From an uncultured Bacteroidales bacterium (GTDB lineage Bacteria > Bacteroidota > Bacteroidia > Bacteroidales > Paludibacteraceae): 64,000 nucleotides of DNA. The first letter of the stretch is position 1, and every line of letters starts with the position of its first letter. The notes beneath the pieces are model-generated. The model ran no database searches. It was not told where the DNA came from and worked only from the letters and a program-made list of their open reading frames with translations. This document shows positions 43,529-64,000 of this stretch, one piece after another. The stretch is taken from contig CACZRD010000054.1 in assembly GCA_902783545.1 (NCBI GenBank), forward strand, positions 2,171 to 66,170, written 5' to 3'. Made by a program: the position numbers and the translations under genes.

Positions 43529-43582
43529 TGTATTTAGATTTTTCGGTTAGTTTGTGCGTCGGTCTTATATGTAATATAAAAA

Positions 43583-43647
43583 TCGATGCAAAGGTACAAA
43601 ATTTCGCGCACATATATGTGTAAAAATTCGTCAAATGGGTGGAATTC
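43583..43647 (-). promoter_or_regulatory. Promoter region of the 923-aa CE8 gene. This is copy A of a perfect 65-bp direct repeat containing a -7 box (TACCTTTG, 43589-43596) and the motif TTTGACGAATTTTTACAC (43618-43635).
   Basis: Identical base for base to 44528-44592. The -7 box lies about 60 nt upstream of the ATG at 43528. Confidence 0.7.
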
Positions 43648-43683
43648 CACAATACTGACAGATATTTTGCCCCATTTGCGAAC

Positions 43684-43713
43684 AAAAAAGACGGCTCACG
43701 TATGTGAACCGCC
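43684..43713 (-). terminator. Intrinsic terminator after the 235-aa gene
   Basis: The minus-strand RNA GGCGGUUCAC-AUAC-GUGAGCCGUC forms a 10-bp stem (two G-U pairs) followed by UUUUUUG. Confidence 0.7.
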
Positions 43714-43750
43714 TTGTTGTTTTAACAGCTGATCGCTGACTGCTGATCGC

Positions 43751-44458
43751 TTAACGGATCTCTGTGCCGAGAGCGTTGTACTTAACGCCGTTCTTGATGA
43801 TAACGAGTTGACCGTTCTCAATCGTCTTAACCGACTTAACGTCAGCGTTGATGTTATCAACAGCGGTGCTTGTACCTACCTCGATTTTAGAGATACGATA
43901 GCCACCGTCGAACTCCTTGATCTGAACATCACCGCCAATAGCCATGAACTCCAGCACTTTCCATACATAACCATCCTCGTCAGCACCTTCGCTACCCTTT
44001 GCCGGCAATGTGAGGTCAGTCGAAACAGCGATAGCATTCTTCGGGAATGTACCTGCTCCATCCAAGAAGTTAGCAGCTTTATCCCCCTTGGCAGCTACGG
44101 TCAGTTTGATAGCGTCACCGGCTGCGGTATTCTTAATAACCAGGATACCGTTCTTGCCACCGTACTCAAAGCATTTGCCCGGATAAATAACGAAAGCTTT
44201 GGATTTAGCACTCGAGTTCTTTGTCTGGAATACAAGGCTTGCTTCGTTCTTGATAACGGTCTCGTTTGGATCTTCGCCGCCAGGGATGTCATAGACGTAC
44301 TTACCTTTCTCTGTGTCCGATGCACTCTCGTTCAGGGTAGCCTGTGCACCCGGAGTCCATTCGTCAATAGATGTAGCAACAGCCGTGAGGTCGATAACCT
44401 TTGCGTTTACTGTCAAGGCTGCAATAGCAGCAGCTGCAAAAAGGAAAAATTTCTTCAT
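43751..44458 (-). CDS. Secreted non-catalytic beta-sandwich protein with the short shared tail
   Basis: The start is set at MKKFFLFAAAAIAALTVNAKV (ATG 44458), because the -7 box at 44534-44541 lies inside the longer ORF-track version. The tail is KTIENGQLVIIKNGVKYNALGTEIR. The gene has its own promoter and terminator. Confidence 0.75.
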   Translation of the reverse strand: MKKFFLFAAAAIAALTVNAKVIDLTAVATSIDEWTPGAQATLNESASDTEKGKYVYDIPGGEDPNETVIKNEASLVFQTKNSSAKSKAFVIYPGKCFEYGGKNGILVIKNTAAGDAIKLTVAAKGDKAANFLDGAGTFPKNAIAVSTDLTLPAKGSEGADEDGYVWKVLEFMAIGGDVQIKEFDGGYRISKIEVGTSTAVDNINADVKSVKTIENGQLVIIKNGVKYNALGTEIR

Positions 44459-44527
44459 GATTTTGACTTGTTTTGTGAGCCTTCCGGCTCGGTTAATGAA
44501 TATAGCTTGTTTGCTTGGTTGCAAAAT

Positions 44528-44592
44528 TCGATGCAAAGGTACAAAATTTCGCGCACATATATGTGTAAAAATTCGTCAAATGGGTGGAATTC
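44528..44592 (-). promoter_or_regulatory. Promoter region of the 235-aa gene. This is copy B of the perfect 65-bp repeat (-7 box 44534-44541; TTTGACGAATTTTTACAC at 44563-44580).
   Basis: Identical to 43583-43647. Weaker similarity continues about 40 bp further upstream. Confidence 0.7.
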
Positions 44593-44756
44593 TACACCAT
44601 TGGCAAATATTTAGTCCCTAATTGCCCAACTATCAGCTATCGGCTATCGGTTATTACCTATCGCCAATCGACTATTTTTATACTCTTCAGTTAGTCGATG
44701 ACCATTGTGTTCTTAGTAGGAACACAGCAGGGTTATGTCTGCTTATAGTCAGCACT

Positions 44757-44816
44757 CGTTGTCGTGTTGTTGCCGTGTCGTTGCCGTGTCGTTGCCGTCT
44801 TTTTGCCGTGTTTTGC
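44757..44816. repeat. Approximately 11-bp-period tandem repeat (GTCGTTGCCGT-like units)
   Basis: Read directly: ...gttgttgccgtgtcgttgccgtgtcgttgccgtctttttgccgtgttttgc. Confidence 0.8.
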
Positions 44817-44865: not shown

Positions 44866-44892
44866 CAAAAAAAGCAGCCCAAGCGGGCTGCT
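44866..44892 (-). terminator. Intrinsic terminator ending the PL1-giant-CE12-439aa transcription unit
   Basis: A perfect 8-bp stem (AGCAGCCC / GGGCTGCT), a 4-nt loop, and a run of 7 U on the minus-strand RNA. Confidence 0.8.
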
Positions 44893-44898
44893 TTTGAT

Positions 44899-44968
44899 GT
44901 TAAGCTGTTAAACGGTTTAGCCGTTAGGCGGTTAAGCTGTTAGGCGGTTAAGCCGTTAAACTGTTAAC
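44899..44968. repeat. 8-bp-period degenerate array (GTTAAGCT/GTTAGGCG/GTTAAGCC...) abutting the stop of the 439-aa gene
   Basis: Read directly; about 8 units. Confidence 0.85.
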
Positions 44969-46283
44969 GAACCTCTACGCCCTGCGCGTTGTAGGTCTTG
45001 CCGTTCAGCTCGATGATCACTTGCCCGTTCACGATGCGCTTGGCAGCCTTGGTGGCAACAGCGGTATTCTCGATTGCGGTCGGAGCCGGCGAATCCGGCA
45101 GGGTGACCTCAGCGATCGGTTCGTTGATCATGATCTGCTTGATCACAACAGTCTTGTCGCTTGTCGTGGTGAGCTTCATGTAGCAGTCATAAGGTACGTT
45201 GGTGATCTCCAGCTTTCCAGCCACCTGAGTCCACTGGTCAGGCGTAATGGTCGCCTCTTCGCCGTTGGCGCTGACGATGACATTATCGCCTACGAATCCG
45301 AGTTTCAAGCGGATGGACGATCCTTGCTTGATCCACAATCCCACGAAAGCACCTGCTTTCTTGAGTTTCAAGCCCAAGTACGGTTCGTTACGAGCGGTCT
45401 TCTCATCGTTGAGCGAGTCGAGTTCGTTGATGTTCTCAAAATCAATATGAGCCGCTTGAAGCACTGCTTGGAAAGCCTGATTGTCCTTGCCGTTATCCAG
45501 TACCCACTGCTCGATGTTCACCGATGCACCGTACTCATAGTTCGTATCGAAGGTAGCGGAATAAGCGATAGTAACCTCTTTGGTCAATGCGCCGATAGTG
45601 AGGCTGACCTTGGTCGAACCGGCTTCAACGTCTGCTGTCGGAGCGAATCGGATTACCACCTTGGCATTGAGCTTGCCGTCCTCGCCTACCGTTACGCTTG
45701 CCGGATTAACGTACAGACCTGACAAATTAGGCACGACCAACGTATAGTTGCCGGCAGCCAGGTTCTTGCCGCTGAAGGTAACCTCAGCCTTCGGAGCCGG
45801 ATTAGCCGCAACAGCGTTGAGCTCAACGGACTCTTTATCTACGTTAAGTACGGGATCAGAAGTAATCTCCTCGTAGGTATATCCAAAGGTCTTCACTTTG
45901 AAGTCGTCTTCTGTGTAGAAATGCAGATACGGCTTGTTGTCATCACGTACCATGACGTCGGAAGAAGTGAAGCCAATCGTTGCGCCCTCTTTAGACATTA
46001 CCATCGCACGGCTTTCGTCTTTCACAGCGCCGCCGTTCTTATAGATATACAAGAAACGTGCTGCCTGATTGTCACTTGCCACAACGGTAAACGTACCCTC
46101 TACGTTTTCCGAAGGTAACTCCACATAAACGTGGGCTTTCTTGATGGCTTTCTTGTTCAAGTCTGCCGTAATGTACGAATTGCCGGTCTTTGTCATGTCG
46201 GACAAAGCGACTACAAAATCATCTGCTGCAAACATTGTCACTGCGAACAATGTTGCTGCGAAAAGGGAAAATAATTTTTGCAT
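44964..46283 (-). CDS. Secreted non-catalytic multi-module protein (beta-sandwich and Ig-like modules) with the short shared tail
   Basis: 439 aa with an SPI signal (LFAVTMFAADD) and no recognisable catalytic motif. The tail is KRIVNGQVIIELNGKTYNAQGVEVR. Confidence 0.75.
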   Translation of the reverse strand: MQKLFSLFAATLFAVTMFAADDFVVALSDMTKTGNSYITADLNKKAIKKAHVYVELPSENVEGTFTVVASDNQAARFLYIYKNGGAVKDESRAMVMSKEGATIGFTSSDVMVRDDNKPYLHFYTEDDFKVKTFGYTYEEITSDPVLNVDKESVELNAVAANPAPKAEVTFSGKNLAAGNYTLVVPNLSGLYVNPASVTVGEDGKLNAKVVIRFAPTADVEAGSTKVSLTIGALTKEVTIAYSATFDTNYEYGASVNIEQWVLDNGKDNQAFQAVLQAAHIDFENINELDSLNDEKTARNEPYLGLKLKKAGAFVGLWIKQGSSIRLKLGFVGDNVIVSANGEEATITPDQWTQVAGKLEITNVPYDCYMKLTTTSDKTVVIKQIMINEPIAEVTLPDSPAPTAIENTAVATKAAKRIVNGQVIIELNGKTYNAQGVEVR

Positions 46284-48170: not shown

Positions 48171-51100
48171 TTATTTAACCGTCACACCTGTCACGTCGTA
48201 CATCTGACCGTTGCGGATGATGAATACGTGATCGTTGATGACAATCTTGCGGACTGCGGACTGCTGACCTCTGCCAGTTGACAGATCAATACCCGTCGCC
48301 ACATGGTGTATCGGCGTGCGGCTGATGATGAACCGTGCCACCATATCCTCATCCGAAGCCATGAACATATAACGACTCTCTGAGCTGATCAGCGTCGATG
48401 TCTGCTCACGGAGGTCATTCAGATACCACGTGTTCTCGCCGTTGTACTCGAACGTGAAGGTATAGACGTCGTCCTCTGTACCTTTGCGGAACCCGAGCAC
48501 CGTGCCTTCCCAATCCGGTACGCAGTTCACTGCCATCTCGCCATCCGGCGTGATAGCGTAGAGTTGCGGTGCATAACTCTCGCCGAACAGCTTGCGACCG
48601 TCCCAGCCGTTCTCAAAGCCTTCGGTGAAATCCTCGCGCTCCCACATGTAGAGCATATCGCCGTAACCGTCTTCCGTACGTACGAACAGTCGCATCTTAT
48701 CCGCCTCGTCTTCCGATGCACCGGCACGCTTCGGAGCTTTGTTTGGTGTTGGCGTTGTACCTGCCAAAGCCGGAGCATATACGATTCTGTTGTAGTCCAG
48801 AGTTACCGAAGCAGTGTTGCCGGTAGTGAATACCGAGAACGACTGCATGGCGGGGATTAAGTCTGTCTCCTCACAGGTTCCTACGGTAGTTGTAATATAG
48901 TTACCGGCAAAACCTTCCTCTAAATAGGATGTACTATCCGTGGATTTGAAGATATAGATCGTTGCGTCTGCGTTGACGAAGTCGGTTGTCTGCATCGCTT
49001 TGATCTTAATCGGAGCCATCCATGAGTTAGCGAGCAGGTTCTCGTTGTTACCGTTGGCAGCGCCCGAACCGCTCTCCCAGTTCAGACCCGAGCACGTGTG
49101 GTTCTCGCTGGAAACGAGTGTTCCCTGCATCCAGTACGTGTGACCTGCGTCATTACCCCACGCATCAGCCGAGAATACGCAGTAGCCCTTGAACGGAGTC
49201 ATGCCATCGCCTTCATGCATGAGCTCCCAACCAATGACTTTATTATCGTAAACGATTTTATATACCCACGAGTTGTACCAGTTGTACAGGATGTTCGTCT
49301 CGTCGTTGAACGGCGTGCCGACATACTGGGCAACCGATGTTTCATTTTTCTTACCGGTTGACTTCGTGTAGAAGTTCACGGTTGCCTTGTTCTTGCCGTC
49401 GTGGCTACCCATGACGAGTGCACCCAGTCCGGCACCCGATGTCGAATTGAAGACTATATCATTCTCGCCTGTAGCGGTATAAGTGCTGCCGTTGGTGGTC
49501 TTGCATACCGTTCTGGAAACAACGAGTTCCTTGCCAGCATCCAGAATCAGTTGACCGGTGTTGCCGCTGTGCTGGTCAAGAACAACATCTGCTGCTTTCG
49601 CGTTCGTCACGTTTACTGCAACCGGTTTCTTGATTACCGCGCGATCAGCTATCGTCGGCAGACCGGCTCCACGACCTGTTGCGCCAATCCAATTGGTTGC
49701 TGTTCCCCAATTGCCATTCGTCTTGGCATCGTACAATACCACATCCGGACAAGTGTAACGTTTAACACGAACCCAGAAGATATCGTGGTTCTGTCCAACA
49801 TTGCCATTACGCATAATGAGCACTTTGTTATTGGTATTAAAACTTGCTGCTAATGCGCTAGTCAACGGGATTTCTATATCTACTGTTTGACTTGTAGTCA
49901 AATCTGTTTTTGACCAAACGGCATTACTTGTCGTCAAATCAGTACTATAGTCCGTATTGTGAATATATATGTACGATTGTTTTGTATATATCCTATAGAC
50001 TATTGTGTCGTTTTCTTTGAACGTATAGCCATTAGCTAAACCAAATAGCAAGTATTTGCCACTTCCTGTTAATTTGTAACATCCTGCCGGATCTTTATCG
50101 TCTTTTGGGCCCAAAACCACCGTTGCAGTTGCATTGGTTTTGTCCGCTTTCGTAGCTGAAGTTAAATCAACTTTAGCAATATAATTACTACCGCAATCCA
50201 TAGTTTTTACGGTAATATTGCATGAAACTGTATTTCCGCAGTGCGTACCATCCGCATCTATGGTTGCAGTAATAGTAGTTGTACCGTGTGCAACAGCAGT
50301 TACCACACCCGTGGACTCATTCACCGTTGCCGCATCTGTGTTACTGGAGCTATACGTTACACTTCCTGTGCTACCGTCCTTATTCAAGGTCGGAGTAGCC
50401 ACAGATTCACCTACCCAAATAGTTGTGTTATCATACGTCAGCGTCGGAGTGATAGGTGTACAATCTGCACAACCGGCTACAGAGATGGTGTTAAGCATCA
50501 CTTGGTCGGTACTTGCAACACGGCGAATTGTGAAACTGCTTGTTCCTTCTATGCCGTCGCCATCAGTTACTACATAACGCTGAGATATGCTGTTATTGGA
50601 GGTACTTGAAACAACGGTGGCAGGAGACATACTATTGCCGCTGACTTTCAAGCCATTCGTATGCGACGATGAAGATGCTGTTCCATAACTACCGATAACG
50701 ATGACCGTTCCTTCCTGCAACATGCCGCCAGAAAGATTAACTGTCAGCTCGTCATTATCATTATTAAATATCAAACCTTTGGCATTACCATTCAGACCCG
50801 CGGCATCCGTTCCGGTGTAAGTCAGCGTACCGCCTGTGATAGTACCGTTAATCATGCCACCAGCCGTAATAACTGTTCCGGCAGGCTGTCCGTCCGGCAT
50901 CGTTTTCTTCGACGCATCCGATACATTGAAGCACGGACTGCCCCAGGCGGCATAGAGGGTTGTCGCAGTTGAAGGCATCGTATAGGTTGCACCCGGTTGG
51001 TACATAGTGCCCGTACCGCTGCTGTTGGTATTCCATCCAAGGAATACATATCCGCTACGCGTCGGGATAGTACTGCTCAGCGTCGTACTACCCGGAGCGA

Positions 51101-53806: not shown

Positions 53807-55669
53807 TTAGAACTTGTTGAAACGCAGCGCGCCGTCCGTGCTGACAGCGATATACGTGCCGGCAGGCAGATGATCAACAGCGATTGTCTCGCGGGTGGTT
53901 GTACCTGCGCAAGCGCCGCTGATAGCGTATACACGGATCACTTTGCGTGCGGGGTTATACAGAACATTGCCGCGGAACGACAGCGTGTTGTCGGTAACCA
54001 TAGCCGTTGATGTGATCGTTGAAGAATGATCATCGATGCCGAAGATGCTCTGGAGCGAACTTGTATAGTTCACAATGAGGTTCGACAACTCAGTGCTGAT
54101 ATTGTAGTCGGCGGGAGCGAAGTTAGCGAGGCTGAAATCAATATCGCTGTGGAACATACGACCTGCGCCATGCGTGCCGGTCACGATCTCAGGGATATTA
54201 TTGGGATCATCGGGCGTGATTGCCGGCATCACAGACGAATTGGTATCGAAGTTGTCATATTTCGAACCACCAAGCTTGGCGGTTACGTTTGACGGCACTT
54301 GCTCGTCACGAGTCTGTGCCAGATAAGCATCGAAATGAACCGGATTCTTGTCCGCATCATAATACGACATCTCGATAGTACGTGTTCCGGCATAGACATT
54401 ATTGAACGCTTTGATAATGCCACCGTTTTCTTTCGAGAATGTCGGAGCATCGCTTTCGTCCGTACCGTTCTTAGTGTCCGTACCTTGCATCGAAATCAGC
54501 ATCGGATGCGAGCAGTTGAGGAAGTAGTTATTCTCTACAAATACCGACGAACCGGTTGTGGCACCTACGCAGTATTTAGCTACGCCATCGAAATAGTTAT
54601 TGAATACGTGCACCGACATCGTACGAACACGCGGATGACGGGAGTCGGAGTGGTCGAACCAGTTGTGGTGATAGGTGATATAGTTGGGACCACTCTCACT
54701 CTTCATACCGCACAGATGCGACTTGCCGGTATCCCAGAGGTGGCAATACGAAACCGTTACATATTTCGAATCGCTCTTCACATCAATAGCACCATCGCCT
54801 TTGGCCTTATCTCCACTACCCTTCTTGCCATAGAACACATCCAAGTGATGCAACCAGATATTGCTGTTATCGGTATCGAGCGAAACGCCATCGTCCATGC
54901 AGGACATGATAGCCAGATTGCGGATCTCTACACTCTTACTGTTACGAACCAAGAATCCGAATCCACGAATCGTTGCATCGTTACCAACGCCCTCGATAGT
55001 CATATTCAGCACGGCATCGGCATTCTTACCTTTGATCTGTACACCTTCCGCCGAACTGCCGAACTCATCCATATCGCTTGCCTGCAGCAGACCCAGGATA
55101 CGAACGTCCAACGGACGCGTCTCATTGCCCTTCTGATAGCCGGTAATGATAGCCTGAATACCTGTACAAGTAGTCTTGGGCTTGCCTGATTTCTCTACTT
55201 GAATATCCATCGAGATAGTCTTGGCGTTACCCTTGTGAACATACAGCACGATCGTGCCGTCCTTCAACATACCATTGTCCTTGTACGCACCTACGCCCTG
55301 AGTCCAGTTGCTATGCGCAAAACCACGCCGGTCGTGAGCACGAACAGTGAGAATATCGGTCTCACTGGCTTCGCTTTCCACATCAGCATTGTCCTTGACA
55401 GGCACAACCTTCAGCTGATACTTGCCGGCGTAAAGACCTAATGCGTCAGCGCGGCAATAGTCGCCGTAGCTACGCAGCAATGGCTTGTCAAGCACGGTAT
55501 AGCTGCCGCCCTCGGGACGGACATATACGTTGTAATCCGAATAACCGCTCAGAGCTGTCCACTCAACGAAAGCACTCTCCAACCAGCCCTCAGCACTCTT
55601 GATTTGTACTGCGGCATTAGCACTCAGACAAGAAAAGAAGATAATGGTAAACACCAAGAATTTTTTCAT
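53807..55669 (-). CDS. PL1 pectate lyase with an N-terminal Fn3-like domain and a longer C-terminal region resembling a T9SS-type sorting domain
   Basis: 620 aa with motifs IWLHHLDVFYG, DGAIDVK and SRHPRVR. The C-terminus is ...VIRVYAISGACAGTTTRETIAVDHLPAGTYIAVSTDGALRFNKF. Confidence 0.8.
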   Translation of the reverse strand: MKKFLVFTIIFFSCLSANAAVQIKSAEGWLESAFVEWTALSGYSDYNVYVRPEGGSYTVLDKPLLRSYGDYCRADALGLYAGKYQLKVVPVKDNADVESEASETDILTVRAHDRRGFAHSNWTQGVGAYKDNGMLKDGTIVLYVHKGNAKTISMDIQVEKSGKPKTTCTGIQAIITGYQKGNETRPLDVRILGLLQASDMDEFGSSAEGVQIKGKNADAVLNMTIEGVGNDATIRGFGFLVRNSKSVEIRNLAIMSCMDDGVSLDTDNSNIWLHHLDVFYGKKGSGDKAKGDGAIDVKSDSKYVTVSYCHLWDTGKSHLCGMKSESGPNYITYHHNWFDHSDSRHPRVRTMSVHVFNNYFDGVAKYCVGATTGSSVFVENNYFLNCSHPMLISMQGTDTKNGTDESDAPTFSKENGGIIKAFNNVYAGTRTIEMSYYDADKNPVHFDAYLAQTRDEQVPSNVTAKLGGSKYDNFDTNSSVMPAITPDDPNNIPEIVTGTHGAGRMFHSDIDFSLANFAPADYNISTELSNLIVNYTSSLQSIFGIDDHSSTITSTAMVTDNTLSFRGNVLYNPARKVIRVYAISGACAGTTTRETIAVDHLPAGTYIAVSTDGALRFNKF

Positions 55670-55710: not shown

Positions 55711-55757
55711 CAAAATTACAAATTTTATTTCATAAAATAGTGTAAAATCTGGTCAAA
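55711..55757 (-). promoter_or_regulatory. Promoter of the PL1-giant gene unit, with a -7 box (TAATTTTG, 55711-55718) and the motif TTTGACCAGATTTTACAC (55740-55757) 21 nt upstream of it
   Basis: The motif family and the 21-nt spacing match the 65-bp repeat promoters at 43.6 and 44.5 kb. Confidence 0.6.
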
Positions 55758-55812
55758 TAGGTGCAAAAACAAAAAAGTTGGCGAATTTTTTGCATTTATG
55801 AATATTTTTTCG

Positions 55813-55820
55813 TACCTTTG
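55813..55820 (+). promoter_or_regulatory. -7 box (TACCTTTG) for the divergent regulator gene
   Basis: Matches TAnnTTTG 23 nt upstream of ATG 55844. Confidence 0.55.
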
Positions 55821-55843: not shown

Positions 55844-58258
55844 ATGAACCGAATCCTTTCATTTATCATAGCAATCAGCATTCAGTTATCAACAATCTGC
55901 TTCGGGCTATCTGCCGGAGAGTATTCTCTGCGCTTCTATGACGACTCCGACGGCTTGAGTCACTGGCACACCACACGCACGCTACAGGACAGCACGGGTG
56001 TGATCTGGATAGCTACGTACAACGGCCTGAACCGCTTCGACGGCTACCGCTTCGTTGCGTTCAAAGCTGCAGACAGCGACGGCCTGTCAATGTCCTCCGA
56101 CCGCATCCGGAAAATGGAACTGACCGCTGACAACAATATCATTTGCCTGATTGACGACGATAATGTCGCATTGTTCAACACCAAGACATGCCGCTTTGAG
56201 GCGTTGGATGAAGAGGCTGGCAATGCAGCGCTGGAGAGGTTGCGGGTGCATCACAACCTGAACCTGTGGAAGGAGAAAGAGGTATATACCGACTTAGGTA
56301 ACCTGCATCTGAAGAACATCCGTCGCGATGACATCGACCGCCAAGGCAACCACTGGCTCATCGATGACCACGGGATATTTGTGGCGACGCCTGTACACCC
56401 CCGCGGAACGCGCATTAACAACGAAGAGGTGCGCGCGATGCTCCGGCTGCATGACGGTGCCATCATTACCTCCGGCCGCAGCAGCAAGCAGGTGATAGTC
56501 TATGACTCCGCCTTTCACCTTATCGGCTACATGCATCCGGACGGACATCTGAGCAAGTCGCCTGCGTCTTTCGGCGACCAGCCCTACTGCTTCTATGAGA
56601 GCCGCGACTGCAAGCACGCGTGGATAGGTTGCAAACCCGGCTGTCTGCTGCGCAGTGACAACGATCCGCGTCACCATGGTATCAAGCGCTACGAGTACGT
56701 GCGCAACGTCTATGAGATAGCCGAGGACTCCGACGGCACAATCTGGGCTGCCACCTACGGATTTGGCCTGTGGAAGCAACAAGGCGAGACCTTCGTGCAG
56801 ATCCCCGGCACGGAAACGATGTCCATCCGGCGTCTGCTCATCATGGACGACAACACTATTCTTGCCGCAACGAGCAAGGGACTGCTCGTTGTCGATAAGC
56901 GAGGACTGCGTCTGCACCAACGCGAAGGCGGTCGGGCAACATCGCTGAGCAACGATATCGTGATGTGTATGTGCCTGAAGAACGGACAACTGTACGTCGG
57001 TACCGAAGGCGGAGGCATCAACCTGTTGACGAGTGACGACATCCATGCTGACGTGCTGGAGTTCGCGCATATAACCCAAGCCGACGGACTACACTCCGAT
57101 ATTGTGTTTGATATTATGCCGTGGTCGGAGAACGAACTACTGGTGCAAGGCAACAGTGCGCTGTCCATTCTGGAAATTAAAAATGAAAAATTAAAAATTA
57201 CCAATTTCGGCAAGTCGTTCTTCCAGACACCCGACAGACGGCCGTTCATCTTAGGCGAGACGTGGCCTATAGACCTCGGTGACGGACGGATATTGCTGGC
57301 GCCGCTGGACGGACTGCTGCTGCTCAACAAATCGGAGCTGACGCCCGAGACGGAGCCGGTACGTATAGCCCTGAGTGCCATCTACCTGGAGGGCAAACCG
57401 AACTACGCCGTCGATGAACTCACCCGCATCACCCTGGCTCCCAACGAACGCAGTATGGGTATAACGTTTGCGGCATTAGACTACCGCGACAACACCGATA
57501 TCCAGTACCGCACGCGATTCTACACCAAGGACGAGAACGACGTACAGTGGAGTGCACCTACCAAACTGAGTCAGATGCTTATTCAGGATCTCAACCCGGG
57601 AGAATATATCTTTGAGGTGCAATCAACCAACGCCTTAGGGCAATGGCAGGACAACACCCGCCGTCTGCTGATCACCGTCACTCCTACGTTCTGGGAGAGC
57701 TCCGCGGGCTGGGTGCTGCAGCTGGGACTGCTGCTGCTGATCACTGTAGCTATCACCGTGCAGACCGTCCGCGTGCGCATGCACCGCAAGCAGCGGGCAG
57801 AGACGCTTGAGGCTTACCTCGATCTGCAGGAGCGCTACCTGCTTATCAGCGACCGATCGGATACGCCTCAGCAGCCAGCGCAAGAGCCGCTACCCGTTCC
57901 CGAGATTCTGGTGCCCGGCTACTCCAGCACGAACGAGCGGTTCCTGAACACCCTGCATCAGTTTATGGAGCAGCATATAAGCGACAACAACCTCTCCATC
58001 GACGATATAGCCGACGTGACGAACATGAGCCGCTCGTCGCTGAACAGGAAAATGCACGAACTGTTTAACCTCTCAGCCAAGGATTTCGTTCAAGCGGCGC
58101 GTATCAAACACGCATGTAACCTACTCCGCACCACGGATATGGCAACCAAAGAGGTCGCCTATGCCTGCGGCTTTAGCGACCCGCGTTACTTCTCCAAGTG
58201 CTTCAAAGCAAGTATCGGTAAGACTCCTACCGAGTACCGAGAGCAGGGATCCGTTTAG
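55844..58258 (+). CDS. Membrane-spanning sensor/regulator with periplasmic two-component-regulator-propeller and Y_Y_Y-type domains, one TM helix and an AraC-type HTH. It has no histidine kinase or receiver domain.
   Basis: 804 aa. Propeller-like repeats (IWIATYNGLNRFDGY, IWAATYGFGLW, LYVGTEGGGINL), a Y_Y_Y-like segment (IQYRTRFY...GEYIFEVQSTN), a TM helix (WVLQLGLLLLITVAITVQTV) and a C-terminal AraC HTH (ACGFSDPRYFSKCFKASIGKTPTEYR). Confidence 0.8.
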   Translation: MNRILSFIIAISIQLSTICFGLSAGEYSLRFYDDSDGLSHWHTTRTLQDSTGVIWIATYNGLNRFDGYRFVAFKAADSDGLSMSSDRIRKMELTADNNIICLIDDDNVALFNTKTCRFEALDEEAGNAALERLRVHHNLNLWKEKEVYTDLGNLHLKNIRRDDIDRQGNHWLIDDHGIFVATPVHPRGTRINNEEVRAMLRLHDGAIITSGRSSKQVIVYDSAFHLIGYMHPDGHLSKSPASFGDQPYCFYESRDCKHAWIGCKPGCLLRSDNDPRHHGIKRYEYVRNVYEIAEDSDGTIWAATYGFGLWKQQGETFVQIPGTETMSIRRLLIMDDNTILAATSKGLLVVDKRGLRLHQREGGRATSLSNDIVMCMCLKNGQLYVGTEGGGINLLTSDDIHADVLEFAHITQADGLHSDIVFDIMPWSENELLVQGNSALSILEIKNEKLKITNFGKSFFQTPDRRPFILGETWPIDLGDGRILLAPLDGLLLLNKSELTPETEPVRIALSAIYLEGKPNYAVDELTRITLAPNERSMGITFAALDYRDNTDIQYRTRFYTKDENDVQWSAPTKLSQMLIQDLNPGEYIFEVQSTNALGQWQDNTRRLLITVTPTFWESSAGWVLQLGLLLLITVAITVQTVRVRMHRKQRAETLEAYLDLQERYLLISDRSDTPQQPAQEPLPVPEILVPGYSSTNERFLNTLHQFMEQHISDNNLSIDDIADVTNMSRSSLNRKMHELFNLSAKDFVQAARIKHACNLLRTTDMATKEVAYACGFSDPRYFSKCFKASIGKTPTEYREQGSV

Positions 58259-60015
58259 AACTGGAAGTAGATGAACGGCTGCATGTCGGCGGTGATGAAC
58301 TGGTAGGCGAGCAGCACGGCTGCGGCGGCGGCGAGGATGATCAGCGGCAGAGGCATAGCAGCGAACCACAGGCGATAACGACGCTTGAAGCGATCGGGCA
58401 GCCAGTGGATGATCATGCCGGCAACGAACAAGAGCACGACGTACTTGTACTCCTGAATGAACGGCAGGATGATCGAGTTATCCCACGCGCAGCCTATCTG
58501 ATGCACCATCTGCTTGGCAGTCTGCCAGGCTTCGCGGTTGGCGGTAGCCGGATCGAGGTTACTTGCCGAACGGAAGAACAGACGGGTGAAGGAGATGAAC
58601 ACGAAGGTCTGGATGATTGCCCACGCATTGTCTATCCAACGTACGAAACGGTTGGTATCCGTACGGAAGCCCCACAGCCAGCCGACGTACCAGATAGACG
58701 TACCGACCCAGAGGATGAGTACCCACACCTCTACCATATTTACGAGCGCGTACGCGTCGTGCGTGAGTTGGCGCGCGGCAACCATGGCGACTGCCAACAG
58801 AAGCATGAGGATATAACGGATATGTTCGTTCAAGGCACGCCAACACTTGTTAATAATCATTCCCACCCCATTGAGTGCACCCCAGATGACAAAGTTCCAG
58901 CTTGCGCCGTGCCACAAGCCGCCGATGAGCATCGTGAGGAACGAGTTGCAGTTCGACGCAAGAAGTTTGCTTGCGGGACGCCCGAGCAGCGTGCGGTTGC
59001 CGCCGAGAGGGATATAGACATACCCTTTCAGCCATCGCGAGAGCGACTGATGCCAGCGACGCCAGAACTCCTGCGGGTTGCGGGACTTATACGGCGAGTC
59101 GAAGTTCTGCGGCAGGTAGAATCCCATAAGCAGCGCCACGCCGATAGCGATATCCGTGTAGCCGGAGAAGTCCGCATAGACCTGCATCGAGTACGTGAGC
59201 AGGGCGAAGAAGTTCTCGAAGCCGGAGAAGAGCATCGGGCTCTGGAACACACGGTCGATGAAGTTGACTGCAAGGTAGTCGGAGAGGATGATCTTCTTCA
59301 ATAGGCCATTCAGAATCCAGAACACCGCTATGCCGAACTGCCGGCGGGTGAGGAAGAACGGACGATAGAGCTGCGGCACGAACTCCGAGGCGCGGACGAT
59401 AGGGCCGGCTACGAGCTGCGGGAAGAACGAGACGTAGAAACCGAAGTCCAAGATGTTCTTCACCGGCTCAATCTTCCCACGGTAGATGTCCACCGCGTAG
59501 GAGATAACCTGGAAGATATAGAACGATATACCCACCGGCAGGATGATCCGATCGACGAGGAATCGCCCATCGTGACTGAAACCGTTGCCTATATACGCGA
59601 AGATATCGAAGACCTGCACCGACGTGCCGAACAGGTCATTGAAGATGTTCGTGAAGAAATACGCGTACTTGAAGTAGAACAGCAGCGAGAGGTCGATGCA
59701 TACACTGAGAATCAGCCAAAGCTTGCTGATCGCTGATTGCTGACTGCTGATTGCTTTATAGATCCGCTTGCCGATGAGCCAGTCGCTGAGCGTGATGAAG
59801 GCGAGGATGAGCAGGAAGATACCAGAGGTCTTGTAATAGAAGAACCACGACGCAGCCATGAGGTAGATATTGCGGGCGTGGAGTCGACCGCGGTTGACTC
59901 CGGCGCGCTGCATGATGAGGGTGAAGCCGGCATAGACGATAGCGAAGAACGCCCAGAAGTAGAACTGGGTGAACAGCAACGGGTGCGCGGGATCATATGT
60001 CAGCCACTCTAACAT
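58255..60015 (-). CDS. MBOAT-family O-acyltransferase (AlgI/DltB/PatA-like)
   Basis: 586 aa, multi-TM, with motifs WRRWHQSLSRWLKGYVYIPLGGNR and GGLWHGASWNFVIWG. Its stop codon overlaps the convergent regulator's stop (58255-58258). Confidence 0.85.
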   Translation of the reverse strand: MLEWLTYDPAHPLLFTQFYFWAFFAIVYAGFTLIMQRAGVNRGRLHARNIYLMAASWFFYYKTSGIFLLILAFITLSDWLIGKRIYKAISSQQSAISKLWLILSVCIDLSLLFYFKYAYFFTNIFNDLFGTSVQVFDIFAYIGNGFSHDGRFLVDRIILPVGISFYIFQVISYAVDIYRGKIEPVKNILDFGFYVSFFPQLVAGPIVRASEFVPQLYRPFFLTRRQFGIAVFWILNGLLKKIILSDYLAVNFIDRVFQSPMLFSGFENFFALLTYSMQVYADFSGYTDIAIGVALLMGFYLPQNFDSPYKSRNPQEFWRRWHQSLSRWLKGYVYIPLGGNRTLLGRPASKLLASNCNSFLTMLIGGLWHGASWNFVIWGALNGVGMIINKCWRALNEHIRYILMLLLAVAMVAARQLTHDAYALVNMVEVWVLILWVGTSIWYVGWLWGFRTDTNRFVRWIDNAWAIIQTFVFISFTRLFFRSASNLDPATANREAWQTAKQMVHQIGCAWDNSIILPFIQEYKYVVLLFVAGMIIHWLPDRFKRRYRLWFAAMPLPLIILAAAAAVLLAYQFITADMQPFIYFQF

Positions 60016-60037
60016 TTACGATTTATTCATTTACCAT

Positions 60038-61420
60038 TTATTCATTTATTGAGTCATTTGGTGATTGGACTATTGTATCAGCAAGGGCTTCGGTGAAGAA
60101 GTCGTAATCTTCGAGCAGTTGCGCGGCGAGCATCTCGCCGACTTTCTTGGCTCCGGCACGGGTGAAGTGAATCATATCATCCCCGGCGAGCCCCATATCT
60201 CGCCAACTGATCATGCTCCCTGCGCCGCCCATGAGGCGGAAGAGCGAGTAGTACGCTCCACCCTCTTCGGCAACCATCGTTGTCAACGCACTGTCCAACT
60301 GCGGCAGCAAGGGATACGTCTGCTGTTCGCCATCAACGGTAGTGATCATATCTGACGGTCCGATGAACAGCAACGAAGCGTTCGGGGCTGCAGACATCAG
60401 GAAGTGAATCTGTTGGCGCATAGCCAGCACGTACTTATCCAAGCCTGCCTTCGTGCGGATAGACGGCATCGCATTGCCGCCGAACTGCATGATGATCAGG
60501 GCAGTGTTCGTCTCGCGGAAGTAGTCAGCGAACATCTGTTTGTTCATCGTGGTGAAGTTCGTTCCCGCCGCACCGCGCATGGGGATATTATCCACCTGCA
60601 CGCCTGTGGCTGTCTCCAGCGAGATACCGTAGACGTAGCCTTCGCCTTCGAAGTGGATGATTGCGCTGCGATGCGTTGCACTGTCAGTAACGAAAGTGAA
60701 TCGGACACTATCCGTGCAGAGGACGCGGATGCGGTCGTAGTCGTAGGTAGGTACGCGGTCGCGGAGCAGCTCAATGTTGACATCAATCGGCTCGGTGATA
60801 TATGCTACCTGTGCCATTGGTCCGTAGCGGTTGTCGTCCTTCAGACGCATGGACGACGGTCCGTACGCCACGTAACGCTTGATGGCAGAGTTGGGCACCT
60901 CGTGGCCGTTCTGCTCCAGGGTCTGTTTGGCAGTATAGGTGGGGATAGTCTGTACCATCGGCACGAGACCTATACCTCCCCCGCCAAAGCGGTCTTGCAG
61001 ACGGCGGCGGATGATCATCGATATGCGGTCTTCCTCGATCTGCGAGTCGCCGTAATGCACGATGCGGACGGACTGCTCGTCTGCCTTGCCAAGTGCCGCG
61101 TAGAACTGCGGGAGGAACAAAGTCGTCTGCGGCAATGTTTCCGGCAGCTTAACGACCTTCGGTTGGTCAGGAGTGCTATCCATGGCAGGCTGCCCGACAG
61201 GTTCAGCCGACAGGGTGTCGGCAACCGCAAGGACGGTGTCAACCAACGGCTCATCGTCTGCCAACAAACTATCCGGAGTTGTGCGGGCGGGGAGATCAGG
61301 TAAGAACGATTCGATAGAAGGAACACGCACCAGCTCGCTTCTGCCTGCGCCTACGACACACACCGCCGCAAGAACGGCAAAGGTGGAGAGGATGCAGAGA
61401 AGGATCTGGTGGGGTTTCAT
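60038..61420 (-). CDS. SGNH/GDSL-type hydrolase/acyltransferase partner of the MBOAT protein
   Basis: 460 aa with an N-terminal TM/signal anchor, the Ser block HYGDSQIEED and the Asp-x-x-His block GDDMIHFT. Confidence 0.7.
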   Translation of the reverse strand: MKPHQILLCILSTFAVLAAVCVVGAGRSELVRVPSIESFLPDLPARTTPDSLLADDEPLVDTVLAVADTLSAEPVGQPAMDSTPDQPKVVKLPETLPQTTLFLPQFYAALGKADEQSVRIVHYGDSQIEEDRISMIIRRRLQDRFGGGGIGLVPMVQTIPTYTAKQTLEQNGHEVPNSAIKRYVAYGPSSMRLKDDNRYGPMAQVAYITEPIDVNIELLRDRVPTYDYDRIRVLCTDSVRFTFVTDSATHRSAIIHFEGEGYVYGISLETATGVQVDNIPMRGAAGTNFTTMNKQMFADYFRETNTALIIMQFGGNAMPSIRTKAGLDKYVLAMRQQIHFLMSAAPNASLLFIGPSDMITTVDGEQQTYPLLPQLDSALTTMVAEEGGAYYSLFRLMGGAGSMISWRDMGLAGDDMIHFTRAGAKKVGEMLAAQLLEDYDFFTEALADTIVQSPNDSINE

Positions 61421-61459
61421 TAACGGATTAGTGGATTAGCGGGTTAATGGATTAGCGGT
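61421..61459. repeat. 8-bp-period array (TTAACGGA/TTAGTGGA/TTAGCGGG/TTAATGGA/TTAGCGG) filling the spacer between trkH and the SGNH gene
   Basis: Read directly. Confidence 0.85.
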
Positions 61460-62977
61460 CTATTTTCTCCACAGGGCGGGTGAGAAGAGCAGTATAACGG
61501 TGAAGATCTCCAGACGGCCGATGAGCATCACGAGGGTCATCACCCACTTGGCAACAACGGGGAAGTTCGCGTAGTTACCTGCGGGACCGTATTGTCCGAG
61601 GCTCTCGCCTACATTACCCATTCCGCTGACAGCCGTTGCAAACGCCTCGCTGGGCGATATGCCGCAAGCGATGAACACGAACGTAGCGAGGATGATGATC
61701 ACGACATAGAAGAACAGGAACGCCATGACATTGTTCGTCACGGTCTGCGTCAGCGGTCGTCCGTTGAAGCGGATAGGAATAACCGCATTCGGGTGAATAC
61801 GACGGTACATCTCGGCGTAGGCGTTCTTGGCGAAGATCGCTATACGTACCCACTTGATACCACCGGCAGTACTGCCTGAGGCACCGCCTGTGAACATCGT
61901 GAGGAACACAAACACCCAGATGATCTTCGGCCAGAGCATATAGTCCGCCGAAGCAAAACCTGTACTGGTGATCGTGGCGCAGATGGTAAAGAAGGCATTG
62001 CGGAACGCCCACTCGACATGCGTGGCATAGCCGCGGATAACATTATTGCCCACCAGCCTGGGCAACCATTCAGCCTGATTGATCCATGTGTAATAGACAA
62101 GCAATGCGATGGTCAGTATAGCCGTGCAGATAAGCACAGCGCCTACGTACCAACGCGTCTCTTCATCGTGATATAGTTTCTCGGGTTTGCCACGCATAAA
62201 GAAGATCAGTTGCGTGAAGTTGATGCCCGACAGCAACATAAACACGGCAACCGTATATTGGATAGCCGGACTGCAGAGCATAAGTGAGGTGTTCTTGGTG
62301 GAGAATCCGCCGGTGGAGATCGTAGCCATGGAGTGACAGACAGAGTCGAACATATCCATGCCGAAGAAGTTCAGCAGTAACGTTTCAAGAACGGTGAGCA
62401 ACACATATGTACCCCACAGCAGTCGTGCCGTGCTGTTGATGCGCGGTGATAGTTTCTCATAGCTCACACCCGTCACCTCTGCTGCATAAAGCTGCATTCC
62501 ACCCAAGCCGAACAGTGGGAGAACCGCCACACTGAGCACGATGATACCCATACCTCCGAGCCATTGCATGAGCGCACGCCAGAGTAAGATAGCGTGGGAC
62601 ATGACTTCGACATTCTCAATAACCGTAGCGCCCATGGTCGAGAAGCCTGCCATGGTCTCAAACCACGAGTCGGTAACCGTATTCAGCGCGCCGGACAGAT
62701 AGAACGGCAACAAGCCAAACACCGAGAACACGATCCAGACGAGTGCCACAATCAGGTAGCCCTCGCGCTCACCGACACGCCTCGGTGCGTCGCGGCCAAT
62801 GCGCATAGCTATCCAGCCGGCAATGAGCGTGATGAACGTGCTCACCGCAAACGCACCACCATCCGGATCGCCGTACAGATACGCCACGACGGTTGGTGCT
62901 GCCATGAACAGCGCCTCGATGAGCAGCAGCGAGCCGTACGTGCGGAATACTATTTTCCAGTTGAATGTTCTTGTCAT
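61460..62977 (-). CDS. trkH: TrkH-family potassium uptake protein
   Basis: 505 aa, multi-TM, with TrkH-like repeated M1-P-M2 segments (GFSTMGAT, STGGFSTKN, TSTGFASAD). It is adjacent to trkA. Confidence 0.88.
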   Translation of the reverse strand: MTRTFNWKIVFRTYGSLLLIEALFMAAPTVVAYLYGDPDGGAFAVSTFITLIAGWIAMRIGRDAPRRVGEREGYLIVALVWIVFSVFGLLPFYLSGALNTVTDSWFETMAGFSTMGATVIENVEVMSHAILLWRALMQWLGGMGIIVLSVAVLPLFGLGGMQLYAAEVTGVSYEKLSPRINSTARLLWGTYVLLTVLETLLLNFFGMDMFDSVCHSMATISTGGFSTKNTSLMLCSPAIQYTVAVFMLLSGINFTQLIFFMRGKPEKLYHDEETRWYVGAVLICTAILTIALLVYYTWINQAEWLPRLVGNNVIRGYATHVEWAFRNAFFTICATITSTGFASADYMLWPKIIWVFVFLTMFTGGASGSTAGGIKWVRIAIFAKNAYAEMYRRIHPNAVIPIRFNGRPLTQTVTNNVMAFLFFYVVIIILATFVFIACGISPSEAFATAVSGMGNVGESLGQYGPAGNYANFPVVAKWVMTLVMLIGRLEIFTVILLFSPALWRK

Positions 62978-63013
62978 TGTTAGCTGTCAGTTATCAGCGG
63001 TCAGCAGTCAGTT

Positions 63014-64000
63014 TTATTTAAAGAACTTCTCAATGCGTTGAAGGTTATTGCTCTTGCAGAACACTACGACCTGGTCGCCCGGTAGGAGTTGGGTGTCGCC
63101 ATTGACCAGGATACCTTCACCGGCACGTACGAGCGCGCCGATATTACACTCCTGGGGCAGACGCATATTCTTGATCACATCACGCGTGATGCGGCTGTCC
63201 TCGGTGACCACAAACTCCACGATCTCCGCATCAGCGGCTGTGAGGTGCTGTACGTTCTGCACCGAGGCTTTCATCAGCAGACGGTAGATGTAACTGGCGG
63301 CAATGGTTTTCTTGTTAAGCATCGCGCCAACCTCCAGCTGCTCTGCCAGGTTGATATAATCCATGTTCTCGATCTCGGCTATCGTCTTACGCACACCAAA
63401 CCGCCGTGCAGCCAGGCAGGCGAAGATGTTCGCCTCGCTATGGTCGGTAACAGCTACAAACGCATCGGCGTCCTCTATACCCTCCTCTTTCAATACGCTC
63501 ATGTCGCTACCGTCAGCGTGGATGATCATCGCGTCGCCGAGTTTCTCCGAGAGACGTTCACACAGTTCGCGGTCAGCCTCCAGCACCTTGACGGTCTTTC
63601 CTTCGGGCAAGGACATCACGGCTTTCTGTGCAATCTTGCTGCCGCCGAAGAAGATGATATTGTTGATCTCGCGCTCGCTCTTGCCGGCTTCCTTGCGGAG
63701 CACGGACATATTCTCTCGCGTGCAGACAGCGTATATCATGTCGCCGACTTCGACTGCATCCGCGCCACCCGGGATAATCGTATCTTGCCCGCGTTTGATG
63801 GCTACGATGCGGTAGTCGCTGTGCGCAAAGTATCCTGACATAAACTGCTTACCGACCATCGGTGCACCCTCGCGGATCTTCACGACGCACAGGTCGAGTT
63901 GTCCGTTGCAGAGCGTCAGGTGATAGCGCATCCAGTTCTTCTTGAGCGACTCGCAGATCTCCTGTGCCGCAAGCACCTCGGGGTAGATGAGGTGGTTGAG
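63014..64000 (-). CDS. trkA: Trk system potassium uptake protein TrkA (C-terminal 328 codons; the 5' end lies beyond the window)
   Basis: The frame stays open to position 64000 (LNHLIYPEVLAAQEI...). It has a second Rossmann/RCK domain (IIFFGGSKIAQKAV). The ORF-track start at 63976 is an internal GTG. Confidence 0.85.
   Translation of the reverse strand, partial: LNHLIYPEVLAAQEICESLKKNWMRYHLTLCNGQLDLCVVKIREGAPMVGKQFMSGYFAHSDYRIVAIKRGQDTIIPGGADAVEVGDMIYAVCTRENMSVLRKEAGKSEREINNIIFFGGSKIAQKAVMSLPEGKTVKVLEADRELCERLSEKLGDAMIIHADGSDMSVLKEEGIEDADAFVAVTDHSEANIFACLAARRFGVRKTIAEIENMDYINLAEQLEVGAMLNKKTIAASYIYRLLMKASVQNVQHLTAADAEIVEFVVTEDSRITRDVIKNMRLPQECNIGALVRAGEGILVNGDTQLLPGDQVVVFCKSNNLQRIEKFFK

Follow-up and report, generated by a model that had tools for sequence, protein, structure and literature searches.

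Is a short motif that recurs at the promoters of a pectin utilisation locus the operator of the AraC-type regulator encoded beside it? The question is raised by a 64,000-nucleotide (nt) stretch of contig CACZRD010000054.1 from an uncultured Bacteroidales bacterium of the Paludibacteraceae (assembly GCA_902783545.1; this whole stretch is hereafter the window), in which a first-pass annotation had noted an 18-bp motif at a fixed distance of 21 nt upstream of the -7 boxes of three promoters, and had proposed it as a candidate operator for the neighbouring regulator, a protein of 804 amino acids (aa). By computing the anatomy of these sites, their conservation, their genome-wide specificity, their co-occurrence with the regulator, the content of the regulon and the absence of a -33 element, we determined that the motif is indeed operator-like, but that the 18-mer appears to be just the promoter-proximal half of an operator of about 39 bp, composed of two half-sites with a 21-bp period. 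We estimate a probability of roughly 0.72 that the motif is a half-site of a tandem operator of the type that hybrid two-component systems (HTCSs) use, through which the adjacent 804-aa regulator activates the three promoters of the locus.

The predicted operators are given here with the scores and ranks that they obtain in a specificity matrix described below.

43618-43656, minus strand: operator O1, with its proximal half-site at 43618-43635 and its distal half-site AGTATTGTGGAATTCCAC at 43639-43656 (45.8 bits, rank 2)
44563-44601, minus strand: operator O2, with its proximal half-site TTTGACGAATTTTTACAC at 44563-44580 and its distal half-site AATGGTGTAGAATTCCAC at 44584-44601 (46.3 bits, rank 1)
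55740-55778, minus strand: operator O3, whole (39.5 bits, rank 3)
55740-55757, minus strand: proximal half-site of O3, TTTGACCAGATTTTACAC, the motif as reported
55761-55778, minus strand: distal half-site of O3, ACTTTTTTGTTTTTGCAC, its TTnCAC core 21 bp 5' of the proximal core

Read from the window sequence, the coordinates, sequences and spacing to TAnnTTTG that had been claimed are all exact. At the first promoter (P1), the proximal half-site TTTGACGAATTTTTACAC at 43618-43635 is followed after 21 nt by the -7 box TACCTTTG at 43589-43596; at the second (P2), TTTGACGAATTTTTACAC occurs again, at 44563-44580, and lies 21 nt from TACCTTTG at 44534-44541; at the third (P3), TTTGACCAGATTTTACAC at 55740-55757 lies 21 nt from TAATTTTG at 55711-55718, all on the minus strand. 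TTTGAC-N4-TTTTACAC is thus found exactly 21 nt 5' of a TAnnTTTG box at all three sites. Counting on both strands of the assembly to which the window belongs (G000; 1.92 Mb, 78% complete), we found three matches to TTTGAC-N3-4-TTTTACAC, all of them the window sites, while about 0.02 exact matches are expected from base composition. TTTTACAC-N19-23-TAnnTTTG also has three matches, identical to the same sites, in an assembly that contains a total of 27 copies of TTTTACAC and 1264 of TAnnTTTG. The genome scan that the first-pass annotation had proposed therefore returns three exact copies, each at a promoter with a TAnnTTTG box. When up to three mismatches were allowed, no excess of the motif was evident in the window (5 observed versus 4.3 expected), and the signal there comes wholly from the three exact copies.

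Although three sites are present, they do not amount to three independent samples. Sites 1 and 2 both lie in a duplicated promoter cassette of 96 nt (copy 1 at 43578-43673, minus strand, and copy 2 at 44523-44618; 91% identical, with a 65-nt identical core), and because of this they count as a single sample; site 3 is 60% identical to the cassette over 96 nt. The observation consequently rests on two independent promoters, not three.

The two-part structure emerged when the promoters adjacent to regulator orthologues were aligned, together with further pattern matches in the same genomes. Alignable divergent promoters, found beside orthologues of 47–83% identity, share the layout (..TTnCAC)-N3-(TTTGRY-N4-WWTTnCAC)-N21-TAnnTTTG, and TTTGRY-N4-WWTTnYAC is held exactly 21 nt from the -7 box throughout this range of identities. 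The 21-bp distance between TTnCAC cores holds for each of the three sites in the window and for 25 related, non-redundant ones. The operator of window site 2, for example, reads AATGGTGTAGAATTCCAC-CCA-TTTGACGAATTTTTACAC, that of a related genome (G222) reads AATGGTGTGGAATTGCAC-GTG-TTTGGCGAATTATTACAC, and that of the clade with regulators of 47% identity reads TTTTATAC-GTC-TTTGGTGAGTTTTTGTAC. The 25 sites, all from other genomes, were collected with a selection pattern that did not include the columns of the distal TTnCAC core; at positions -48, -47, -44 and -43 these sites have T, T, A and C at frequencies of 0.88, 1.00, 0.84 and 0.84, versus 0.34, 0.45, 0.23 and 0.27 at the same four positions in the general promoters of G000. 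Furthermore, a specificity matrix of 41 columns, built from sites outside G000 and with the -7 box left out, ranks the three window sites first to third among 3.83 million G000 positions (46.3, 45.8 and 39.5 bits), the next position scoring 25.2 bits.

We then determined how the sites are distributed across the genus. A search of 60 relatives with the exact pattern TTTGAC-N4-TTTTRCAC (10 matches versus 6 for the control) demanded too much of a half-site that is degenerate beyond the closest species, and this pattern was replaced by the composite TTTGRB-N4-WWTTVYMB-N21-TAnnTTTG. The composite pattern has 42 matches in 26 of 201 genus genomes, as opposed to two for the reversed control. It occurs in 20 of the 23 regulator-positive genomes but in only 5 of the 177 regulator-negative ones (Fisher test, 5e-20); when only sites that do not adjoin the regulator gene are considered, the corresponding fractions are 8/23 and 5/177 (8e-6). 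We consider this co-occurrence evidence strong, but not formal.

The exceptions are of three kinds. The matches in G094 and G188, one of which is upstream of lepA, are without a distal half-site and look like chance. In G001 (82% complete) and G062 (63% complete), the sites lie ahead of genes of the pectin locus. A site without a regulator also occurs in G015, although this genome is 95% complete; here (L083, G015:C22, 5381-7678) an intact tandem operator and -7 box precede a kduD fragment, cut after residue 103, that is directly adjoined by a gene for an MBOAT-family acyltransferase. Since this MBOAT gene is the one beside the regulator gene in the window, the G015 site is a deletion relic, and the pectin locus and its regulator appear to have been lost from this genome.

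The genes found 3' of the sites in other genomes include PL1, CE12, CE8 and GH28 genes and relatives of those for two proteins of the window locus, of 1836 and 235 aa; sites also head a kduD-DUF4861-kduI-eda-uxaB-uxaA-GH88 operon. For one further downstream gene, a Pfam scan of its 40-residue N-terminal fragment gave no match. kduD and GH28 are internal to a long operon in the window, yet have their own operator-promoter in other genomes. Evidently, new operons have come under the cassette by its movement or duplication, of which the 96-nt repeat in the window is an instance.

If these sites are operators, how do they relate to the promoters on which they lie? As a general promoter set we used the 271 TAnnTTTG boxes located 5' of long open reading frames in G000, for which the consensus is TTTGCA-N18-TAnCTTTG; in 134 of the 271 (49%), TTTG ends exactly 20 nt before TA. 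As a side observation, this consensus is unusually rigid, extending to TTTGCA(A/T)AT, with a G before the -7 box in 74% of the promoters and A/T tracts phased at 10–11 nt back to -60. In the regulated promoters, the CAC of the operator lies at -24 to -22 relative to TA in every case, and a -33 TTTG is missing from all 25 non-redundant regulated promoters. The 18-bp motif reads CACA or CACT at -24 to -21, and so does not qualify as an ordinary -33 element; the distance to TA is 35 nt from the end of its TTTG and 25 nt from that of its TTTT run, where the canonical distance is 20. The earlier contention that the motif lies too far upstream to be a -33 element is therefore borne out: the regulated promoters are without the canonical TTTGCA because the operator fills that place. 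Activator-dependent promoters of a class-II-like kind are laid out in this way, with an operator in place of a missing -33 element, which fits activation.

The first-pass annotation had also described a weaker relative of the motif, GTTGGCGAATTTTTTGCA, at 55777-55794 on the plus strand, 18 nt from TACCTTTG at 55813-55820. Sequence and position are as described, but the TTTGCA that forms its 3' part is the ordinary -33 element of the regulator promoter:

55789-55794, plus strand: -33 element TTTGCA of the regulator promoter, its TTTG ending 20 nt before TACCTTTG at 55813-55820

Since this spacing is canonical and the half-site-matrix score of GTTGGCGAATTTTTTGCA (4.8–8.2 bits) is not distinctive, being equalled or exceeded at 459–1602 genome positions, a fourth operator copy was ruled out. 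O3 ends 34 nt 5' of the -7 box of the regulator, and it is possible that the regulator autoregulates from O3 itself.

A further element lies between the operator and the -7 box of P1 and P2:

43602-43612, with a second copy at 44547-44557, minus strand: GC-rich spacer element TGTGCGCGAAA

In the spacer of most genus sites, TATGCGCGAAA or TACGCGTA is found at -16 to -7, with TATGCGnnAAA conserved, but the element is absent from P3 and from its close orthologues. A similar GC-rich element occurs at an unrelated SusC promoter (G000 C79, about 6375, minus strand), together with different upstream repeats. The element may weaken the promoter, may be a second control site, or may be a feature of inducible promoters of polysaccharide utilisation loci (PULs).

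The most obvious candidate to bind the operator is the product of the gene that diverges from P3:

55844-58258, plus strand: candidate cognate regulator, 804 aa, divergent from P3

This protein has a signal peptide, a periplasmic sensor of Reg_prop and Y_Y_Y domains, a transmembrane helix at about residues 621–643, a linker of about 60 aa and an AraC-type helix-turn-helix (HTH) domain at 722–801. HisKA, HATPase_c and REC domains were not detected in it, Pfam giving only Reg_prop, Y_Y_Y, HTH_18 and HTH_AraC. Orthologues of 780–890 aa and 37–83% identity are encoded by 23 of 200 other genus genomes, and close relatives come from metagenome-assembled genomes of herbivore-gut Bacteroidales/Paludibacteraceae. 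The best match of its DNA-binding domain in the PDB is an HTCS protein (12aw_A, 2e-22), and the domain is of the HTCS type. There are seven AraC-type HTH proteins in G000, none of HTCS size; the nearest AraC paralogue to this DNA-binding domain, a periplasmic-binding-protein/transmembrane/AraC protein, is 36% identical, and the AraC domain of the regulator is the sole one near the locus. An order-wide search with the domain, at the overly strict threshold of E<=1e-25, returned one match, 43% identical and in an HTCS-sized frame.

Among the orthologues, the first HTH unit, MSRSSLNRKMHELF, is almost invariant, and the second changes from SDPRYFSK to SNP(H/Q)YFAT in a clade whose boxes read GTAC or ATAC instead of nCAC. 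This covariation of box and second HTH unit, which involves few independent events, is suggestive. In two related loci (L024, G147:C12; L026, G141:C64), the region between the regulator and PL1 genes is broken by repeated hairpin-like units, CCGAAAAAGAACCTGCCAAGGTTGTTTTTCGGAGAGCGGAGGC..., possibly a small mobile or repeat element.

The genus also encodes a second kinase-less 'HTCS' architecture, consisting of a periplasmic sugar-binding-protein domain, a transmembrane helix and an AraC HTH (G000 C4:1638-1859, a 530-aa frame; L080 1498-3033, 511 aa, in G015). It resembles the fructose-sensing BT1754 type in one-component form, and its G000 representative shares about 36% identity with the 804-aa regulator in the DNA-binding region. 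As alternative binders we considered, and ruled out, the 511-aa AraC proteins of three regulator-negative genomes (G015, G001 and G062); that of G015, the only one examined, is a periplasmic-binding-protein/transmembrane/AraC sensor that adjoins a GH32 gene and belongs to a fructan system.

What, then, would the three operators control? The window carries, on its minus strand, a complete locus for the utilisation of pectin and hexuronates, of 43 kb and 26 genes in three transcription units, the promoters and ends of which are as follows.

55711-55718, minus strand: -7 box TAATTTTG of P3, which precedes genes for a PL1 pectate lyase (53807-55669), the 1836-aa protein (Flg_new/Big_2), a 122-aa open reading frame, a CE12/GDSL esterase and a 439-aa protein
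44867-44891, minus strand: hairpin and T-run resembling an intrinsic terminator, read from sequence, at the end of the P3 unit
44534-44541, minus strand: -7 box TACCTTTG of P2, which precedes the gene for the 235-aa secreted protein (43751-44458)
43684-43713, minus strand: hairpin and T-run resembling an intrinsic terminator, at the end of the P2 unit and just 5' of O1
43589-43596, minus strand: -7 box TACCTTTG of P1, which heads a run of 20 minus-strand genes from 43528 down to 12531

Gaps within the P1 run are at most 47 nt. Its genes encode two CE8 and three GH28 proteins, Pec_lyase, UxaC, KdgK, Eda, UxaB, UxaA, GH88, SusC, SusD, two DUF4861 proteins, KduD, KduI, a major facilitator superfamily transporter and one protein without a Pfam match. 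Along the 44 kb of gene strand between 12 and 56 kb there are only three intergenic TAnnTTTG boxes, and all three bear the motif. The MBOAT gene and three more minus-strand genes (58255-63976), which are convergent with the regulator gene and have no operator, are probably outside the regulon. Separately, arrays of repeats with a period of 7–8 nt occur at 44899-44970, 43728-43756, 40841-40869, 48249-48277 and 44630-44800, with the units GTTAAGCT/GTTAGGCG, GCTGACC/GCTGACT, ctatcgg and gttgccgtgtc; they lie at or just past the 3' ends of secreted-protein genes, between stop codon and terminator.

The proposal that the motif is a candidate operator for the adjacent AraC-type regulator is thus supported by a 21-nt spacing conserved beside orthologues down to 47% identity and by phyletic co-occurrence, and is further backed by a coherent pectin regulon, by the replacement of the -33 element and by the likeness of the sites to published and footprinted HTCS operators. 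Physical contact with the DNA, the stoichiometry of the dimer, the ligand and the direction of regulation are inferred. The two half-sites of about 18 bp form a direct repeat whose 21-bp period places them on the same helix face, so that a dimer of the membrane-anchored regulator could dock with one AraC-type DNA-binding domain per half-site; the TTTGRY and TTnCAC boxes, about 10 bp apart, would fit the two HTH units of one such domain. Because the operator sits at the usual position of the -33 TTTGCA, the three promoters would be intrinsically weak and would fire only with the ligand-bound regulator docked, in a class-II-like manner. The ligand is presumably pectin oligosaccharides, and together the three sites would place the whole 43-kb pectin and hexuronate locus under a single sensor.

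The same protein and site could also work with the opposite sign, the regulator repressing the three promoters until a pectin oligosaccharide releases it, and we regard this as unlikely, though it is the best of the alternatives. The operator abuts and overlaps the place of the -33 element, where steric repression is as plausible as class-II activation. However, one would expect a promoter under repression to retain a strong core, and the -33 TTTG that half of the promoters of the genome possess is found in 0 of 25 regulated promoters; moreover, the membrane-bound PUL regulators SusR (PMC3878776) and BguR (bioRxiv 10.64898/2026.01.10.698779) are activators. A constitutively active, detached receiver-DNA-binding fragment of BT4124, the closest characterised relative, did repress local homogalacturonan genes (PMC13292587), but its authors qualify their own result, as the detached fragment cannot dimerise (PMC13292587).

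It is less probable still that a different factor binds the motif, or that the motif is a special promoter element for a dedicated sigma factor or co-factor, and that its link to the 804-aa gene is one of synteny only. The second conserved element, TATGCGCGAAA, which is present in the same promoters and at the unrelated SusC promoter, suggests that other factors may act there, and G015 has a site but no regulator despite being 95% complete. That site, however, is the deletion relic beside a truncated kduD, and the -7 box is of the ordinary housekeeping type. HTCS-type AraC domains have the 21-bp tandem direct repeat with CAC-N21 geometry as their signature, the second HTH unit of the regulator varies together with the boxes, and no other AraC domain of G000 exceeds 36% identity to that of the regulator.

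That the similarity merely reflects shared descent of duplicated cassettes, the motif being free of functional constraint, is strongly disfavoured: although a recent 96-nt duplication gave rise to sites 1 and 2, and site 3 still aligns with them, half-site columns are kept while flank and spacer columns randomise, across regulators only 47% identical and different target genes, a matrix from foreign genomes singles out these sites uniquely, and a related geometry exists in Bacteroides.

Several points weigh against activation through an HTCS-type tandem operator. The distal half-sites are degenerate, scoring only -3.8 to 7.0 bits in a matrix of proximal half-sites. Most sites come with the conserved GC-rich spacer element TATGCGCGAAA, for which the model offers no explanation. 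The co-occurrence is partly circular, as the composite pattern was derived from regulator-adjacent promoters, and the genus genomes are kin, not independent; promoter cassettes have spread in the genus by duplication, so that part of the similarity is shared descent. Transcription start sites were placed by the -7 consensus. Finally, given the repression exerted by the BT4124 fragment, activation is not certain.

Were activation of the three promoters through this operator correct, the HTCS operator geometry would have survived the loss of kinase and receiver from the regulator. The regulon would then be readable from sequence for one uncultured Bacteroidales lineage of the herbivore gut, with one sensor and three cassettes for 26 pectin and hexuronate genes. 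For annotation, half-site-N21-TAnnTTTG marks the heads of pectin operons in regulator-bearing genomes of the genus, with almost no background. As the geometry survives the loss of kinase and receiver, the 804-aa protein and its 39-bp site would constitute a compact, ATP-independent sensor-promoter pair, possibly usable as a pectin-inducible switch in Bacteroides. We give even odds to a more far-reaching proposal, in which an HTCS derivative with neither kinase nor receiver, tethered to the membrane through a single helix and a 60-residue linker, uses the same 21-bp tandem geometry to activate promoters without a -33 element and without a phosphorelay, the whole 43-kb locus is run from three cassettes spread by duplication, and TATGCGCGAAA is a second shared control point of the inducible PUL promoters of the genus. 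Neither recognition of the operator nor transmembrane signalling would, on this proposal, require the phosphotransfer modules.

Finally, we compared the motif, the operator and the regulator with known systems. Like the canonical -33 element of Bacteroidota, the motif is T-rich with a G and lies upstream of the -7 box, but it is present at three promoters only, whereas the -33 element is present at about half of the G000 promoters. A likeness to the MarA/SoxS marbox, judged by eye, is merely loose (a GCAC box and an A/T tract) and was discarded. The I1-I2 direct repeats of AraC overlap the -35 element of araBAD, a case of class II activation in the AraC family. As with I1-I2, the window operator has a pair of half-sites, directly repeated at a period of about 21 bp, each of which would be contacted by one two-HTH domain, and a proximal half-site that abuts or overlaps the place of the upstream hexamer in a promoter that has no good hexamer. 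Unlike I1-I2, it belongs to a -33/-7 promoter of Bacteroidota and to a membrane-tethered regulator, and neither looping nor a second operator is evident.

In domain layout the regulator resembles BguR, a propeller-Y_Y_Y-transmembrane-GerE one-component activator of laminarin PULs (bioRxiv 10.64898/2026.01.10.698779): both have a signal peptide, a propeller sensor, Y_Y_Y, a single transmembrane helix, a helical linker and a C-terminal HTH, and both are without a phosphorelay. BguR activates the adjacent PUL, and a conserved motif lies between its gene and the first PUL gene, as in the window. However, BguR has 940 aa, two propellers and a GerE/LuxR-type HTH and acts on beta-glucan, whereas the window regulator has 804 aa and an HTCS-type AraC domain and is associated with pectin. 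It lacks the HTH that characterises the BguR type and, having an HTCS-type AraC domain, would therefore be expected to use an HTCS-type tandem operator, unlike BguR.

The closest parallels to the operator are those of gut Bacteroides. The operators predicted for 16 HTCSs of B. thetaiotaomicron are all direct repeats, on average 21 bp apart (Ravcheev et al. 2013, RegPrecise, PMC3878776), and the supplementary alignments contain ..ATTGCAC-N21-TAnnTTTG at BT4114, BT4116 and BT2818 (PMC3878776). The BT2818 site reads TTGTGCACCTAATTTGGTGAATATTGCAC, in tandem form TTGTGCAC-CTA-ATTTGGTGAATATTGCAC (PMC3878776), which is nearly the same sequence as TTTTGCAC-CTA-TTTGACCAGATTTTACAC in the window. The pectin HTCS_Rgu-1 sites at BT4108, BT4114 and BT4116 include CAAAAAATGCAC-N9-CAAAAAATGCAC (PMC3878776). 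BT4124 binds the bt4114 promoter in electrophoretic mobility shift assays (PMC11253607), and DNase I footprinting of BT4124 confirmed a pair of half-sites, about 21 bp apart, where they had been predicted (PMC13292587), whereas the window operator is a predicted one.

The window sites share with these operators the direct repeat of about 21 bp, a half-site ending in WWTT(A/G)CAC, a proximal CAC-N21-TAnnTTTG, a position at PUL operon heads, an association with pectin PULs and an AraC-domain regulator encoded in the same locus. They differ in their 5' box, which is TTTGAC/TTTGGY where the Rgu-1 sites have an A-tract, and in the genus-specific GC-rich spacer element that most of them carry. As to the regulator, it has the sensor and C-terminal AraC HTH of a classical HTCS but not its phosphorelay domains, HisKA, HATPase and REC. 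By repeat spacing, position relative to the -7 box, an HTCS-type AraC regulator in the locus, and conservation and co-occurrence, the operator would be a further case of a known class, of a design already known from gut Bacteroides, and its sole unusual aspect is that an HTCS-type operator would here serve a regulator without kinase or receiver.

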